DNA of 64,000 nucleotides from Promethearchaeota archaeon (GTDB taxonomy: Archaea; Asgardarchaeota; Lokiarchaeia; Sigyniarchaeales; SOKP01). A program made the position numbers and the translations under genes. The stretch is from positions 1,132,943 to 1,196,942 of the forward strand of contig JAHPZA010000006.1 in assembly GCA_019058445.1 (NCBI GenBank), written 5' to 3'. Under the pieces are notes generated by a model. The model was given only the letters and a program-made list of their open reading frames with translations. It was not told the origin of the DNA and did no database searches. Shown in pieces: positions 5,661-13,175 of the stretch (its first letter is position 1; each line of letters starts with the position of its first letter).

Positions 5661-5978
5661 CTAAATTGTAATAACTGCTGGTCTTCTAGATAGAGCGTGA
5701 ATTGCCTTTTTTTCTTTTGAATCTTTTTTATCCATAACTTCAATATCACATTGGTATTTTTTTTCTAGAATTGGTTTAATTTCTTGAAAGAACTGGGACT
5801 CTTCTTTAGAAGAAAGTGATATTTTAGAGTATTTCCCCACACTTTTTAGGATCTTGGCTGTAATTTGAGTAATATTTTTACCATGAGGTTTTAGATCGCT
5901 CTATTTCATGATCTTTTTCAATATTTCTCCCTGATTTCTTGTTTTATCTAGCAACGTCATTAATATACTATAGAATTT
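5661..5978 (-). pseudogene. Diverged, disabled copy of the last 105 codons of leuS
   Basis: Colinear without indels with 7166-7483 (offset 1505). Translation KFYSILMTLLDKTRNQGEILKKIMK*SDLKPHGK...RRPAVITI*; about 80/105 aa identical by hand count; internal TAG at 5901-5903; truncated at the 5' end. Confidence 0.95.
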
Positions 5979-6227
5979 TCCAACTAAAAATCAGGAATTT
6001 TTAGATAATCTCTTGATTATTGTTTCAGAATTTATTAACGAGAAGAGCCCTATTTTATATGACGATATAATTAATTTTGTTAAGCCAAAAAAGCTTATTG
6101 GTGAAAGATATACGAATTTAATAATCTAGTGTAATTTTATGAATAGGAACAGTGAATCATTTATTAAATAAAAAAATTTAGTTAAAATTTAAAATAGAAA
6201 TCCATCTATGAATTTATGTAATAAATT

Positions 6228-7165: not shown

Positions 7166-9943
7166 TTAAGCTATAACAATAGCGGGACGTCCTGGTAGTG
7201 CTTGACTTGCTTTTTTTTCTTGCGAATTATTTTCATCTACTACTTCGATATCACATTGATATTTTTTGTTGAGGATTGGTTTTATTTCTTGAAAGAATTG
7301 TAATTCTTCTTCGGGAGAGAGTGATAATTTAGAATATTTACCAACATTTTTCAGAATTTTAGCCGTAATTTGACTAATGTTTTTACCATGAGGTTTAAGA
7401 TCACTCTCTTTCATGATTTTTTTCATAATATCTCCTTGATTTCTAGTCTCGTCGAGTAGTGACATTAAAATACTGTAGAATTTAAACTTCCACTTATCTG
7501 CGATGATTATCGAGATCTTCTCCAGGGTTTCTTTCTTCATTACTAATTTGATATTATTCACATCATCAACGATATTGTTCATAAGTTTCCATTTGAAATC
7601 ACTTTCTTCAGTAAGAAGTTTTTCGTCATAGGAGGGCCATGCTGCCAAACTAGCATACTCTTTTTTGCCAATTCTCTCCCAAATTTCTTCAGTCATGTGT
7701 GGAGCAATTGGATGGAGGAGAAGCGTAAGTTTTTCCTGACATTCTTCAAAAGTGGTTTTAATTACTCCCTCATTTTTATATTTATTCAGATCAGCTGTAA
7801 ACTGAATAATATTATTCACGGCATCCCTAATTGCTATTTTTTCAAGACTTTCAGTGACAAGTTTTATGGTTTTATTTAAATTGTAAATAACAAGTGTATC
7901 TCTTATAGTTTTCTTTTTTCTTATGCTTTCTGGAGGCTCGGTAAGTAATATAAAAGTGTTTCTTATAAATTTATATGCAAATCCTACTCCCTCTTCAGAC
8001 CATTCTAATCCAGATTCGGGGCTTGCGCCAAATAAAATAAAGAATCTTGCAGCATCTGCTCCATATTCATTCATTATTTCAATGGGATCAACAGTATTTC
8101 CGTATGATTTGCTCATCTTAACACTTTTTAACACAAATTTACTGCCACATTGTTTACATGTTTCATCATGCATTTCTGCTTTCATTGCAAAGCTATTGCA
8201 TTTAGGACAGTAAGGATGAGCCTTATTTATCATACCTTGTGTCAATAAGCGTTGAAAAGGCTCATCAGATTTATGAAGCCCGAGATCTCGAGATACCTTG
8301 GTAACAAATCGGGCATAAAGGAGATGCATGATTGCATGCTCGATACCACCAATGTATTGATCCACATTCATCCAATAATTAACTATATTCTTTCTATAAG
8401 GTAATTCATCCGTTCTCGGATCACAGAATTTGATGAAATACCAAGAACTATCAACAAATGTGTCCATCGTATCTGTTTCACGTTTTGCTGCCTTGCCGCA
8501 TTTAGGGCATTTGGTATTTACAAAACTTTTGCTAGTTTCTAAAGGATTTCCTTTTCCCGTAAATTTAACATCTTTAGGTAGCTTAACGGGTAAGTCTTTA
8601 TAAGGTACAGGTACAATCCCACATTCATCGCAATATATAATAGGGATGGGACATCCCCAGTATCGTTGACGTGAAATTAACCAATCTCTCAGTTTATAAT
8701 TAATGGTTGCTTCTCCCATGCCAATCTTTTCTAATTTTTCAGTAATAGCATTAATAGCGACTCTATTTTCCATTCCATTAAATTCTTCTGAATTGACTAA
8801 GGTACCGTCTTCTTCATAAGCACGAGTCATTTTACTTAATTTCAATTCATAATCAAATGGTTGAATAACAATTTTAATAGGGATATCATATTCTTTTGCA
8901 AATTCAAAATCTCGTTGATCATGGGCAGGGACGGCCATCACTGCACCGGCACCATACTCAAAAATGACAAAATTCCCGATATAGACGGGCACTTTTTCAT
9001 TCGTCATGGGATTAATGGCATACTTTCCAATGAACATTCCTTTTTTTTCAACTTCTATATCTGTCCTCTCAAATTTGTTTTGTTTCATAACTTCCTCGTA
9101 TAAAATTTCAAAGTCTTTTTCATATTCGGTGTCTTTAACCCATTCCCTTACCCAAGGATGTTCTGGAGCGAAAACCATAAATGTCACTCCATATAATGTA
9201 TCTGGTCGAGTAGTAAAGATGTCAATCGTCCGATCCTCATCCACAATTGGAAATCTAATAATAGATCCCTCAGAACGCCCAATCCAGTTTCGTTGCATAA
9301 TCTTAACTTTCTCTGGCCAATCTACCACATTCAATCCATCTAATAACTCTTCCGCGTAGGCTCGTATTTTTAAAAACCATTGTGTCAAAAATTTTTGCTC
9401 AACATCAGAACTGCATCGCCAGCATTTACCACCTTGTACCTGCTCATTTGCCAGAACTGTATTGCATTTATTGCACCAATTAACATACGACCCTTCTCTA
9501 TATGCTAAATCTTTTTCAAGGAATTTTAAAAACAACCATTGGTCCCATTTATAATAATCAGTATCATGGCTGTAAATCATTCGCGCCCAATCATAAGAAA
9601 GTCCAATTCGCTTTTGTTGTTTTATGATTGCATCTATATTCGAATCTGTCCATTCTTCAGGATTTTCTCCATGGTCGATGGCGGCGTTCTCTGCGGGCAT
9701 ACCGAATGAATCATACCCCATGGGATATAGTACGTTGAATCCCCGCATTCGCTTAAATCTGGCGTAACTATCGCCTATTGAATAATTTCTTAGATGACCT
9801 ATATGAAGATGAGAGCTAGGATAGGGATACATTTCAAGAACATAGAATTTTTCTTTCTTCTCTTCTTTAACCTCAAATATTTTATCTTTTTCCCATTTTT
9901 CCTGCCATTTATTTTCGATTTTTTGAAAATCATATTCAACCAT
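7166..9943 (-). CDS. leuS: Leucyl-tRNA synthetase (bacterial-type core, archaeal-type C-terminal domain)
   Basis: MYPYPSSHLHIGH (HIGH), CP1 editing FTTRPDT/GAGAVMAVPAHDQRD, ISRQRYWG, GGIEHA, KMSKS; C-terminus KASQALPGRPAIVIA. Confidence 0.98.
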   Translation of the reverse strand: MVEYDFQKIENKWQEKWEKDKIFEVKEEKKEKFYVLEMYPYPSSHLHIGHLRNYSIGDSYARFKRMRGFNVLYPMGYDSFGMPAENAAIDHGENPEEWTDSNIDAIIKQQKRIGLSYDWARMIYSHDTDYYKWDQWLFLKFLEKDLAYREGSYVNWCNKCNTVLANEQVQGGKCWRCSSDVEQKFLTQWFLKIRAYAEELLDGLNVVDWPEKVKIMQRNWIGRSEGSIIRFPIVDEDRTIDIFTTRPDTLYGVTFMVFAPEHPWVREWVKDTEYEKDFEILYEEVMKQNKFERTDIEVEKKGMFIGKYAINPMTNEKVPVYIGNFVIFEYGAGAVMAVPAHDQRDFEFAKEYDIPIKIVIQPFDYELKLSKMTRAYEEDGTLVNSEEFNGMENRVAINAITEKLEKIGMGEATINYKLRDWLISRQRYWGCPIPIIYCDECGIVPVPYKDLPVKLPKDVKFTGKGNPLETSKSFVNTKCPKCGKAAKRETDTMDTFVDSSWYFIKFCDPRTDELPYRKNIVNYWMNVDQYIGGIEHAIMHLLYARFVTKVSRDLGLHKSDEPFQRLLTQGMINKAHPYCPKCNSFAMKAEMHDETCKQCGSKFVLKSVKMSKSYGNTVDPIEIMNEYGADAARFFILFGASPESGLEWSEEGVGFAYKFIRNTFILLTEPPESIRKKKTIRDTLVIYNLNKTIKLVTESLEKIAIRDAVNNIIQFTADLNKYKNEGVIKTTFEECQEKLTLLLHPIAPHMTEEIWERIGKKEYASLAAWPSYDEKLLTEESDFKWKLMNNIVDDVNNIKLVMKKETLEKISIIIADKWKFKFYSILMSLLDETRNQGDIMKKIMKESDLKPHGKNISQITAKILKNVGKYSKLSLSPEEELQFFQEIKPILNKKYQCDIEVVDENNSQEKKASQALPGRPAIVIA

Positions 9944-10138
9944 TATAATCTAACTCACTCTTTTCAAATTTTGTAATAAAATACTTTTGTTTTGTGTTTT
10001 ATTGTTTTTATTTTTTTCACTTTCACGATTTCAAGTCAGCTGCGTAATAATCACTGACCTCTTTTTAGTATAATCTACACACGGAGCAAACAAATCCGTA
10101 GTAAGGTTTTAAAAAGAGGTTAGATTTGCTTGCTTGCT
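9944..10138 (-). promoter_or_regulatory. Structured leuS 5' leader (candidate attenuator switch)
   Basis: Complementary segment pairs: 10122-10134 with 10085-10097 (13 bp incl. 2 G-U); 10110-10123 with 10054-10067 (13/14); 10054-10060 with 10033-10039 (7 bp); 10112-10126 with 9947-9964 (15 bp plus a 3-nt bulge, over the SD-like GAGUGA). Confidence 0.75.
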
Positions 10139-10195
10139 TTATAATAATAATAATAGAACTTTGTTAAGAAATTGTAAACTTAATGAGTTCTTCAT
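10139..10195 (-). CDS. Leu-rich leader peptide MKNSLSLQFLNKVLLLLL (alternative start 10213 adds MISNNN)
   Basis: 8 of 18 codons are Leu; ends CTA TTA TTA TTA TTA TAA; lies on the same strand 195 nt upstream of the leuS ATG. Confidence 0.7.
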   Translation of the reverse strand: MKNSLSLQFLNKVLLLLL

Positions 10196-10238
10196 ATTAT
10201 TATTTGAAATCATGATTATATTCGATAAAATATTATGA

Positions 10239-10255
10239 ATTATAAATTTTTTCCT
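10239..10255 (-). promoter_or_regulatory. BRE/TATA promoter candidate for the leuS leader transcript
   Basis: Minus strand AGGAAAAAA-TTTATAAT, ending about 26 nt before ATG 10213, which would give a near-leaderless uORF. Confidence 0.55.
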
Positions 10256-10334: not shown

Positions 10335-11330
10335 ATGATTAAGAACATACGAGTTTCTATTGGAAGTGCCTCGGTATTAGGATTGGTTTCGAAACAATTT
10401 CCCATACCTCCAACAACATGTTATATAATGACATATAAAGAAGGACACTGTATAGCGAATTGTGGCTTTTGTCCTCAAGCGAGGGAATCAAGAAGTTCTA
10501 TCGAAAAACTCTCACGTATAACATGGCCAGTTTTTCCTTTTAAAGAGTTTCTCACAAAATTGACTTATATGCCCCCTTCGAAAAGATTTAAGAGAATTTG
10601 TATTCAAACTCTTAATTATAAAGAAAATTTTAAAGATTTAAGAGAAATTATTACCCAAATCAAGAACAATTCAAATATACCCATTTCTGTTGCAATTCCA
10701 CCTATATCAAAAGAGAAACTAAAGGAATTATACGTGATGGGCGTTCAAAGAGTAGGTATTGCATTAGACGGGGCGACATCAGAGATTTTTGATAAAATTA
10801 AGGGAAAAGGTGTTAAAGGACCTTATAATTGGGAACATCATATGGAATGTTTAAAATATGCCTTAGAAACCTTTCCTGAGGGATCTGTTACAACTCATGT
10901 GATTGTCGGATTAGGTGAGACTGAAAAAGACCTTCTTAAATTAATTAAAAATTTGAGGGATTTAGATATCCTCGTTTCACTATTTGCCTTCACACCTATA
11001 AAAGGTACCAGATTTGAACATCTTCCTCAACCAGAATTAATTAAATTTAGAAAAGTTCAACTAAGTCGATATCTCATATTAGTGGAAGCTAAAGAAGTTC
11101 AAGATTTTGCTTTTAACCAAGAGGGGAGTTTAGTTAACATTAATATTAGTAAGCAAAAATTAAAAAATATAATTGATGATACAGATGCGTTTTTAACTTC
11201 GGGTTGTCCCGGGTGTAATAGACCATACTATACTTCTCGTCCATCTGGTCCAATATATAATTATCCGAGAAAATTAAGCGAAAAAGAAAAAGAAGAAATT
11301 TATAAATTATTAGAAAAATATGTGATTTAA
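10335..11330 (+). CDS. lipS2: Archaeal-type lipoate synthase component LipS2 (radical SAM)
   Basis: CIANCGFC radical SAM motif; C-terminal TSGCPGCNRP signature; adjacent to a lipoate ligase. Confidence 0.85.
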   Translation: MIKNIRVSIGSASVLGLVSKQFPIPPTTCYIMTYKEGHCIANCGFCPQARESRSSIEKLSRITWPVFPFKEFLTKLTYMPPSKRFKRICIQTLNYKENFKDLREIITQIKNNSNIPISVAIPPISKEKLKELYVMGVQRVGIALDGATSEIFDKIKGKGVKGPYNWEHHMECLKYALETFPEGSVTTHVIVGLGETEKDLLKLIKNLRDLDILVSLFAFTPIKGTRFEHLPQPELIKFRKVQLSRYLILVEAKEVQDFAFNQEGSLVNINISKQKLKNIIDDTDAFLTSGCPGCNRPYYTSRPSGPIYNYPRKLSEKEKEEIYKLLEKYVI

Positions 11331-11347
11331 TAGAGTAGAGGGTTTTT

Positions 11348-12127
11348 ATGGATAAATGGCGCTTTATATCTTTGGATATCAAAAATGGTTTTTGGAATAT
11401 GGCCTTAGATGAGGCTATTTTAAACGCTGTAATTGAGAAAAGATCCCCCCATACTGTAAGATTTTATAAGTGGAAACCCTCTACAGCGAGTATTGGAAGA
11501 AATCAGAGTTTATCCACAGAAGTTGATATAGAATTTACAAAGAAAAAGGGATACAATGTTGTCCGGCGTATTACTGGGGGAGGGGCGGTGTTTCATGATA
11601 GTAATGGTGAAATTACTTATTCAATAGTATGTCCAATAAAATTTTTAGAGCGTTTTAATGCTATAAAAGTGTTAGATCAATTTGAAATAATAACCCAAGG
11701 AATAGTAACTGGTTTAAACAACTATGGTTTACAACCAAAAAAGGGAGTTATTCATTGTCCCGCCATTTTTCTTGATGGAAAAAAGTTCTCTGGAAATGCC
11801 CAGGTAAGGAAAAAAGGTTATCTACTTCAGCATGGTACAATTTTATTGGATATAGACCCAGAATTAATGTATTCTGTATTAAAAGCACCTGAAAATGTGG
11901 GAAAATCAAGGATGGTGAGATCAGTTCGTGCCAAATGTATTGGAATTAAAGATCAACTCCAAGACTATAATGAAACACAATTTTTAAAAGCTTTAAAATA
12001 CGGATTTGAAAATACTTTAGGGATTAAATTAAAGGAGGGTTATTTTTCCGATTATGAAATAGAAATGGCTAAAAGATTAGTTAAAGAAAAATATTCAAAT
12101 ATCGAATGGTTAAAAAAATATGAATAA
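11348..12127 (+). CDS. Lipoate/octanoate-protein ligase A catalytic domain
   Basis: NMALDEA, VRRITGGGAVFHD, KKFSGNAQ, LQHGTIL. Confidence 0.93.
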   Translation: MDKWRFISLDIKNGFWNMALDEAILNAVIEKRSPHTVRFYKWKPSTASIGRNQSLSTEVDIEFTKKKGYNVVRRITGGGAVFHDSNGEITYSIVCPIKFLERFNAIKVLDQFEIITQGIVTGLNNYGLQPKKGVIHCPAIFLDGKKFSGNAQVRKKGYLLQHGTILLDIDPELMYSVLKAPENVGKSRMVRSVRAKCIGIKDQLQDYNETQFLKALKYGFENTLGIKLKEGYFSDYEIEMAKRLVKEKYSNIEWLKKYE

Positions 12128-13175
12128 ATCTAAAGAATTATTGCATAAAATACAATCAAAAACAGCGTCATGGTCAGATTTTTCATCTTTTTTGACTTTA
12201 GAAGAACCAGAACTGGAACCATTTTTTCTCCATGCTCAGGAAATTACAAGACAAAATTTCAACAATATATTAAAAATTTATAATCCTACTAATAGGTTTC
12301 CTGCGATAAGTATAACCGGGAACAAATGTGCCTTAAAGTGCGAACATTGTAATGAGAAATATTTGAAAGGTATGAAGTCATTAATAACAAATAGCGATTT
12401 GGAATCCTTTTTAATGAAACACTCCAGAAATGAGGGAATTGGAGCACTTATATCAGGGGGATGTGAGCTAGATGGATCAGTCCCGTTAATTAATTATTTA
12501 GATACTATTAAAGAAGTGAAAAACAAGACAAATTTAATCATAAATACTCATACCGGATTACTTAATAAGGAAACAGCACAAAAACTAGCAGATGCTAAGG
12601 TTGATATCATTTCCTTTGATATTAACTTGGATGAGGAAATAATTGAAAATATATACCATTTAGATAAGAGTGTAAATGACTATAAACAGGCTATTGAACT
12701 CTTAAAAGAACACAAATTAAATATTGTACCTCATATTTGTATCGGTCTCTATTATGGCAAGATTCATAAAGAGTTAGAGTCAATCAGATTTATAAAAGAA
12801 TCTGACATAAATCCCTCGTTAATAGTCATAATTGCGTTAATTCCTCCAAAAAACTCGAAGGTTGAATTTGAAAGGCCTAAGGCAATAGATATCGCAAAAA
12901 TAATCGCTTTGATAAGATTTGTTTTTCCATATACGGAGATTTCATTGGGTTGTATGAGACCTAGAGGAAATATAAAAATTATGTTAGAAAAATATGCCAT
13001 TAAGTCAGGCATTACTCGAATTGAACTTCCTTCAAAAGATACATTGAAATGGTTAAAAAGATCTAATCCGGACGTCACATTTCAATTTTTTTCAGCATGT
13101 TGTGCGATTCCTTCTAACTTTGAGAATTTTGCAAAAAGTAAAGATTCAGATATTAAGAGGTATTTAAGCATTTAA
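12120..13175 (+). CDS. lipS1: Archaeal-type lipoate synthase component LipS1 (radical SAM)
   Basis: CALKCEHC motif; GCMRP and C-terminal CC signatures. Confidence 0.85.
   Translation: MNKSKELLHKIQSKTASWSDFSSFLTLEEPELEPFFLHAQEITRQNFNNILKIYNPTNRFPAISITGNKCALKCEHCNEKYLKGMKSLITNSDLESFLMKHSRNEGIGALISGGCELDGSVPLINYLDTIKEVKNKTNLIINTHTGLLNKETAQKLADAKVDIISFDINLDEEIIENIYHLDKSVNDYKQAIELLKEHKLNIVPHICIGLYYGKIHKELESIRFIKESDINPSLIVIIALIPPKNSKVEFERPKAIDIAKIIALIRFVFPYTEISLGCMRPRGNIKIMLEKYAIKSGITRIELPSKDTLKWLKRSNPDVTFQFFSACCAIPSNFENFAKSKDSDIKRYLSI

Follow-up and report, generated by a model that had tools for sequence, protein, structure and literature searches.

The gene for leucyl-tRNA synthetase (leuS) in this Promethearchaeota genome is preceded by a long leader, in which a pyrimidine-rich segment behind a short leucine-ending open reading frame (ORF) can pair with the leuS ribosome-binding site (RBS). 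The locus thus raises the question of whether this pairing is the working output of a leucine-sensing switch, as the initial annotation proposed, or whether the part of the leader that evolution has maintained lies elsewhere.

The leuS locus and its leader

We analysed a 64,000-nt stretch of DNA (the window) from a source genome (G000) of 4.6 Mb and about 31% GC. The nearest leuS loci in a public genome collection all come from Promethearchaeota MAGs, of Lokiarchaeia-type Asgard archaea. The encoded LeuRS is a hybrid: TIGR00396 matches residues 4-810 with 956 bits and leuS_arch models match residues 603-924, which gives it a bacterial-type core and an archaeal-like C-terminal domain. Divergent from leuS, across 391 nt of intergenic DNA, lies the LipS2 gene (10335..11330), the first member of a LipS2 - lipoate-protein ligase - LipS1 cluster (10335-13175, plus strand) that corresponds to the archaeal two-protein lipoyl synthase system. 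On the other side, about 1.2 kb downstream of the intact leuS, the minus strand carries a diverged copy of the last ~104 leuS codons (5670-5981), with 77% identity to residues 820-923 and one in-frame TAG.

The features of the leader are collected in Table 1. The TATA box of the candidate promoter starts 33 nt before the leader ATG (a spacing of about 30 nt), and because it lies so close, translation of the leader ORF probably starts on a leaderless or near-leaderless transcript. The same promoter motif precedes leuS in relatives, and in paralogous elements it precedes the leader ORF. We found the long leuS leader only in the source genome and in three congeners (G003, G007 and G008), to which the comparison of orthologous leuS leaders was confined; elsewhere in the genus and family, the leuS leader is ~85 nt long and follows the same AAAAAATTTAT promoter motif. 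All three congeners keep the leader ORF, with 5-6 terminal Leu codons. The leader peptides are otherwise free to vary, apart from this C-terminal run and an N-terminal MISN motif.

Table 1. Features of the leuS leader, in window coordinates
Feature	Position	Strand	Remarks
leuS, 925 aa	7166..9943	minus	from the ORF list; ATG at 9943-9941
Long-range helix, 3' arm	9947..9968	minus	covers the SD-like GAGUGA (9960-9955), of which UGA (9957-9955) is bulged
A-rich spacer	9969..10020	minus	from the switch to the RBS; equivalent region in 36 archaeal-leuS leaders without conserved structure
Helix arm D, AAAAAGAGGU	10057..10066	minus	SD-like purine tract; pairs with B; S4 of the initial annotation
Helix arm C, GGAUUUGUUUGCU	10085..10097	minus	pairs with A
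Long-range helix, 5' arm	10108..10126	minus	last 5 nt of arm A (AAUCU), 1-nt linker, 10-nt arm B (ACCUCUUUUU) and 3 A
Helix arm B, ACCUCUUUUU	10111..10120	minus	pyrimidine/U tract; pairs with D; S2 of the initial annotation
Helix arm A, AGCAAGCAAAUCU	10122..10134	minus	5 nt after the leader stop; covaries in the family
Leader ORF, 24 codons, MISNNNMKNSLSLQFLNKVLLLLL	10139..10213	minus	ends CTA TTA TTA TTA TTA TAA
Archaeal-type promoter (putative), BRE-like purine-rich tract and TTTATAAT	10239..10254	minus	read from sequence

A long-range helix covers the leuS start in the source genome

The initial annotation had described 15 pairs with a 3-nt bulge between mRNA positions 10126-10112 and 9964-9947. 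We found that this segment (AATCTAAC-CTCTTTT) indeed pairs without a mismatch to 9964-9958 and 9954-9947, TGA 9957-9955 being bulged, and that RNAduplex adds four further pairs, out to 10108/9968. The helix is therefore longer than claimed: it joins 10126-10108 with 9968-9958 and 9954-9947 in 19 bp, one of them a G-U, with a duplex energy of -17.8 kcal/mol. The coordinates also confirm that the SD-like GAGUGA lies within the helix and that its last pair is 3 nt short of the leuS AUG.

Folding of the leader region, which had been suggested as a check, placed the helix in the minimum free energy (MFE) structure of 9930-10140 (-38.5 kcal/mol; z = -2.55); of 200 shuffled sequences, 3 reached an equally good fold. 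The MFE structure is 4.6 kcal/mol better than the best fold containing the competing helix B:D described below, in a ranking that is incomplete because ViennaRNA cannot score a pseudoknot of A:C with B:D. The partition function gives a probability of about 0.6 for pairing between the RBS window (-18..+3) and the A/B segments. The significance of the helix beyond chance is modest: when the 270-nt upstream region was dinucleotide-shuffled 1000 times, 1.7% of the shuffles gave a duplex as good or better, and so did 2.7% of 1497 genes paired with their own upstream regions. With the 5' arm held fixed, the leuS RBS ranks 9 among 3276 gene starts (top 0.3%), and pure chance is an unlikely source of the helix. 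Masking the first 15 nt past the leader stop leaves the helix in the MFE structure, and the model thus predicts no response of the helix to a ribosome at equilibrium in the source species.

The label "SD-like" for GAGUGA was assessed from k-mer enrichment upstream of genes in place of a comparison with the 16S anti-SD, as the source assembly contains no SSU rRNA and the sole copy in the genus ends at model position 1343 of 1478. We found that the words GAGGT, AGGTG, GGTGA, GTGAT, AGTGA and GAGTG are enriched at -18..-4 of source-genome genes and are complementary to a AUCACCUCC-like 16S tail. Words of the GAGTGA type (GAGTG, AGTGA, GTGAG) are enriched 4.5-6 fold at these positions, so the label is a fair one. 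The leuS GAGUGA lies 3-4 nt upstream of the usual enrichment peak, and it is plausible, judged by its sequence, as a distant SD.

The RBS pairing is not conserved

The annotation had named a lack of conservation in relatives as the finding that would speak against the S2-RBS helix as switch output, and this is largely what we observed; that role for the helix is not borne out. Across the three orthologous leaders, both arms carry uncompensated changes. A G-to-A substitution, which turns AAAAGAG into AAAAAAG facing a C, is found in G003 and G007, and G003 carries in addition a U-to-A change in the 5' arm and a U-to-G change in the 3' arm, both likewise uncompensated. The MFE folds of the G003, G007 and G008 leaders contain B:D and lack the long-range helix. 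The duplex is weaker in each ortholog and the RBS is far more easily opened (Table 2), with pairing of the RBS to A/B at a probability of at most 0.03.

Table 2. Pairing of the 5' arm with the leuS RBS in four orthologous leaders
Leader	Arm-RBS duplex (kcal/mol)	Background tail	RBS opening (kcal/mol)
G000	-17.8	0.3%	10.8
G003	-9.2	12.6%	2.4
G007	-12.0	6.3%	3.8
G008	-10.6	9.2%	2.0

The same held for the wider family of related elements described below, in which this probability is 0.04 or less in 26 of the 27 other members; the exception, at 0.45, is a paralog upstream of a small ORF in G003 (L128). RNAalifold applied to 17 leaders of archaeal-type leuS genes, from leader stop to ATG, returned A:C alone and no structure hiding the RBS, and applied to 36 such leaders, from D to ATG, it returned no conserved structure. 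By eye, about a third of archaeal-leuS leaders have no recognisable SD at the start codon, and sequestration of the SD therefore cannot be the general output of the family. With only four orthologous leaders the conservation test is thin; the three orthologs still pair favourably against background (6-13% tails), and their residual pairing could be under weak selection.

Two crossing helices after the leader stop covary across the family

Downstream of the leader stop, four arms in the order A, B, C, D can form the helices A:C and B:D. In the source genome, A:C forms 13 of 13 pairs when forced (duplex -17.5 kcal/mol) and B:D forms 10 of 10 (-12.7 kcal/mol). The annotation had suggested that S2 (CCTCTTTT) also pairs with S4 (AAAAGAGG), and this pairing is helix B:D. 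Among the 24 family elements outside the subgroup of source-genome type, A:C comprises 14 pairs, with 94.9% paired and 5 pairs covarying, and B:D comprises 15 pairs, with 87.2% paired and 4 pairs changed on both sides. None of 500 shuffles matched the observed values on four of five measures, and 2 of 500 did so on the fifth; slid controls were 32-56% paired, against the 94.9% and 87.2% of the true helices. Arm A begins inside the leader stop codon in these 24 members and 5 nt after it in the source genome, and GGAUUUG, in arm C, is better conserved across the family than any other block.

Because the two helices cross, they must either form a pseudoknot or exclude one another, and with 4 nt between A and B their full coexistence looks strained. 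The nucleotides of the long-range 5' arm are the same ones that pair with C and D in this conserved structure. When the source-genome RNA was folded at increasing length, A:C was part of the optimal structure at 62-80 nt and gave way to B:D at 100-190 nt; only the full-length RNA, with the RBS present, folded into the long-range helix. We saw no bacterial-type hairpin followed by a U run: RNAalifold was empty downstream of A:C, and the U tract lies within arm B. Of the earlier proposal that the output is translational and not a terminator, the part concerning the missing bacterial terminator hairpin therefore stands, and the part that makes the S2-RBS helix the conserved output does not.

Distances within the family are constant even though the A-rich spacer is poorly conserved: the leader stop is separated from arm C by 44-45 nt in nearly all members and from the regulated start by ~135-165 nt, or by 198-202 nt in the four leaders of bacterial-core leuS.

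Leader composition follows the downstream gene

Of 135 genomes in one Promethearchaeota family, 90 had full-length matches to a covariance model (R1) built from eight sequences and trained on this genus; the matches covered 9 of the 13 genera. The model found no match in 14 genomes of a sister family, a result that, for a genus-trained model, does not imply absence. BLAST against the whole source genome returned one paralog of 10057-10155, with 79% identity, at G000:C6:889126-889225. This paralog, with a promoter of its own and a leader ORF rich in Val and Leu, lies upstream of a conserved 45-aa ORF, and it differs from the leuS leader by two compensatory changes in B:D. Further paralogs of the element lie upstream of ilvE. 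We tabulated the 58 elements with a recognisable leader ORF, excluding 14 of 40 extra loci that were not regex-anchored, and found that the composition of the last ten leader residues follows the downstream gene (Table 3).

Table 3. Genes downstream of 58 elements and composition of their leaders
Downstream gene	n	Leader
Archaeal-type leuS	36	57% Leu over the final 10 residues (21 leaders measured)
Bacterial-core leuS	4	last 10 residues 68% Leu
45-aa ORF ending AW	8	last 10 residues 49% Val, 40% Leu
FrhB-like gene	5	Ile/Val-rich
ilvE	2	Ala/Val/Ile-rich
No ORF called (L140, L148)	2	Val/Leu/Ile-rich
Acyl-CoA dehydrogenase	1	Val-rich

The 45-aa ORF, which ends (D/E)K(D/E)(I/L)AW, was seen at 8 loci in several genera, each time downstream of the RNA element and of a leader rich in Val and Leu; the source-genome copy (L045:5296-5433, plus strand, equal to G000:C6:889295-889432) lies outside the window. 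It matches no Pfam family and is presumably tied to branched-chain amino acids. In other genera, Ile/Val-rich leaders (for example ..SLSIIIVVVLII) precede a 4Fe-4S / FrhB-like gene (L151, L167, L175, L185 and L193), and a leader with a run of Val precedes an acyl-CoA dehydrogenase-like gene (L184). Since the element is found before these two kinds of gene, the regulon extends beyond biosynthesis and tRNA charging.

Only four species carry the leader on a bacterial-core leuS. Most other genera of the family have a second, archaeal-type leuS behind a Leu leader; with that query, we did not find an archaeal-type leuS in four genomes of genus g1, one of them 98% complete. Given that genus g1 lacks it, the Leu leader on the bacterial-core leuS looks re-deployed. 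Judged from these comparisons, the leader/helix module looks portable, and it seems to have been transferred to a different leuS, with a change of sensor codons from Val/Leu to pure Leu. Such a shift would give a clear natural example of an attenuator that is portable and can be reprogrammed.

Proposed working of the leader

We propose that the device consists of an archaeal promoter, a leaderless or near-leaderless 24-codon ORF with five Leu codons at its end, its stop codon, and the crossing helices A:C and B:D. During a shortage of charged tRNA-Leu, a ribosome would be slowed in the Leu run, arm A would be left free, and A:C would form once C has been transcribed. This state would keep the U-rich arm B in a loop and leave the SD-like purine arm D single-stranded. 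With ample Leu, the ribosome would reach the stop codon and cover about half of arm A in this leader, so that C would stay unpaired and B:D would form. These steps assume standard ribosome footprints.

The choice between the helices could be read out by either of two routes: the poly-U tract of B could become accessible to the archaeal termination machinery, or the SD-like tract D could become accessible to ribosomes. Both D and an AGGNGG just downstream of it are SD-like. We give the transcriptional and the translational route roughly equal odds. Directly behind D, at an aligned position, 14-16 of the first 17 archaeal-leuS leaders have a GTG or ATG, as do the two ilvE leaders and those of the source genome and G008. 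Across 36 leaders the motif after D reads AGGNGG, often with no start codon, and we treat it, on the strength of its sequence, as a putative second SD-like tract. A second mini-ORF using D as its SD was considered and rejected, as neither frames nor lengths are kept. The one RNA run sampled was uninformative on transcripts: it contained 4% of the sampled words, in contigs confined to the low-complexity A-rich spacer.

In the source genome only, the 3' end of A together with B would pair with the leuS RBS as well, in the most stable fold of the complete leader. This third pairing would at most occlude the RBS on relaxed, ribosome-free transcripts, and formation of A:C would relieve the occlusion.

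Origin of the long-range helix and alternative explanations

Both arms of the long-range helix occur where the helix itself does not. The 5' arm, AAUCU(A/G)ACCU(C/U)UUU, is kept in paralogs that lack its pairing partner. In the 3' arm, AAAAGAG resembles the SD tract of the paralogous small-ORF leader, GTTAGATT resembles the 5'UTR of leader-less relatives (AGGTTAGTT..ATG), and GUUAGAUU is similar to the AGGUUAGUU 5'UTR of relatives without a leader. The 3' arm thus probably represents an SD-like tract joined to the ancestral leuS 5'UTR. Because other constraints explain both arms, we read the helix as a real, species-specific by-product or young add-on and not as the conserved output of the device, a reading to which we assign a probability of roughly 60%.

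The reading of the initial annotation, that the helix is the working output in the manner of ermC/cat, with A/B hiding the SD, S4 acting as anti-anti-SD and stalling opening the RBS, draws support from the source genome itself: the helix is the MFE structure and 10.8 kcal/mol would be needed to open the RBS, the leuS RBS falls within the best 0.3% of gene starts when these are ranked by complementarity with the 5' arm, and this arm overlaps A and B, so that either A:C or B:D excludes the helix. Moreover, arm B of the small-ORF paralog in G003 also pairs with its own SD (P 0.45). Yet the pairing is not kept in three orthologs, whose substitutions are uncompensated, and is missing from 26 of the 27 other members, and about a third of archaeal-leuS leaders, by eye, have no recognisable SD to be hidden. 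A ribosome parked on the stop codon leaves the helix closed at equilibrium, and B:D forms ~100 nt before the RBS is transcribed, so that B would have to be stripped from D. We therefore consider this reading doubtful. A compromise, which we advance with the same reserve, is a three-state archaeal riboregulator, in which a paralog-derived core read by the ribosome, with its leader ORF and the choice between A:C and B:D, was moved onto a different leuS after loss of the archaeal-type leuS, and in this species the RBS is newly being recruited as a third pairing partner; if true, it would show a translational output being added to a portable attenuator at an early stage. Alternatively, the helix might be a constitutive closing stem that joins the leader to the start region, for RNA stability or compaction of the A-rich spacer, with no sensing of Leu. 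It does stay in the MFE structure with or without the stop-proximal 15 nt masked, but such a stem would hide the RBS of an essential gene permanently, behind 10.8 kcal/mol, and it is absent from the orthologs, which makes this explanation improbable.

More improbable still is that the arms matter as DNA, as an inverted repeat that bounds a small mobile element or marks a site where DNA recombines or inverts. A 180-nt metagenome contig (run X2) spans 9947-10126 exactly and two contigs of run X3 start exactly at 10126, as would be expected from a k-mer graph if both orientations existed. However, the repeat-bounded unit is single-copy, with a sole paralog (79% over 100 nt) that matches the 5' arm and the interior but has no 3' arm, all four species carry the segment in one and the same orientation, there were no junction contigs, and 9946 and 10127 are ordinary sites of between-species polymorphism that are able to break contigs. 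On the same single copy in a whole-genome BLAST search and single orientation in the four species, MITE-type terminal inverted repeats were also rejected. The contig edges at the helix ends may reflect strain polymorphism at 9946/10127, fold-back or inversion chimeras, or chance at a depth of 4. We thus retain the reading of the helix as a by-product or young add-on, and regard A:C and B:D as the conserved part of the leader.

Comparison with known systems

Regulation by leader peptides that a ribosome reads is textbook biology in bacteria; in the literature searched, we found no report of leader-peptide attenuation in archaea. No Rfam family matched at gathering score in the window, and the leader searched at E up to 10 gave two chance-level matches; because of this lack of a match, the leader is not a T-box, Leu_leader or known riboswitch. 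Of the features expected of an attenuator, we found the run of cognate codons in a short upstream ORF (5 Leu here, with 58 elements tracking the downstream gene). Directly after the stop lie two covarying helices that cross each other, so that they would either be alternatives or form a pseudoknot. We did not find an intrinsic terminator as one of the alternatives.

Among bacteria, leader-peptide attenuators precede synthetase genes in E. coli (pheM-pheST), and candidates precede leuS in Streptomyces avermitilis and S. coelicolor (PMC1262725). The leader analysed here resembles these in having an ORF with cognate codons directly before the synthetase gene, followed by putatively alternative pairings that would be set by ribosome position. 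It differs in its Asgard host and in a leader ORF that is probably leaderless. It differs also in topology, as the bacterial attenuators form a nested 1:2 / 2:3 / 3:4 series whereas the helices here cross as in a pseudoknot, in its U tract, which lies inside arm B instead of following a hairpin as in the bacterial terminator, and in having no Rfam match.

In translational attenuation of the ermC/cat type, sequestration of the regulated gene's RBS is the defining feature, and stalling is caused by a drug together with a specific nascent peptide. Sequestration of the regulated SD or start was not conserved here, the RBS being occluded in the source genome and not in its orthologs. The source-genome leader shares with ermC, cat and ermB a leader ORF followed by a pyrimidine-rich segment that pairs with SD-like purines, and its RBS can also be hidden. 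In contrast to those systems, stalling would come from a shortage of amino acid or charged tRNA, not from a drug and nascent peptide, and sequestration of the RBS is seen in one species and not in orthologs or the wider family. Like ermC and cat, ermB is an example of translational attenuation (PMC8274638).

The Asgard version of such a device is thereby narrowed: what is conserved is a leader ORF and two crossing helices after its stop, and not occlusion of the downstream RBS. Attention shifts accordingly to the choice between A:C and B:D and to whether the U tract and the SD-like tract are exposed or hidden. The case also urges caution against building a mechanism on the minimum-energy fold of a single species.

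The U tract invites a last comparison. Termination in archaea that depends on aCPSF1 has reportedly been treated in papers of 2021 (eLife) and 2020 (NAR). Archaeal termination sites, at which aCPSF1 assists, are marked by U tracts (PMC10450193). Like these poly-U terminators, arm B consists of a conserved U tract, which reads CUUUUUCUUUU in most members and CCUCUUUUU in this leader and is located 20-35 nt after the leader stop. Unlike them, arm B is also a strand of a covarying helix, which ordinary terminators do not need.
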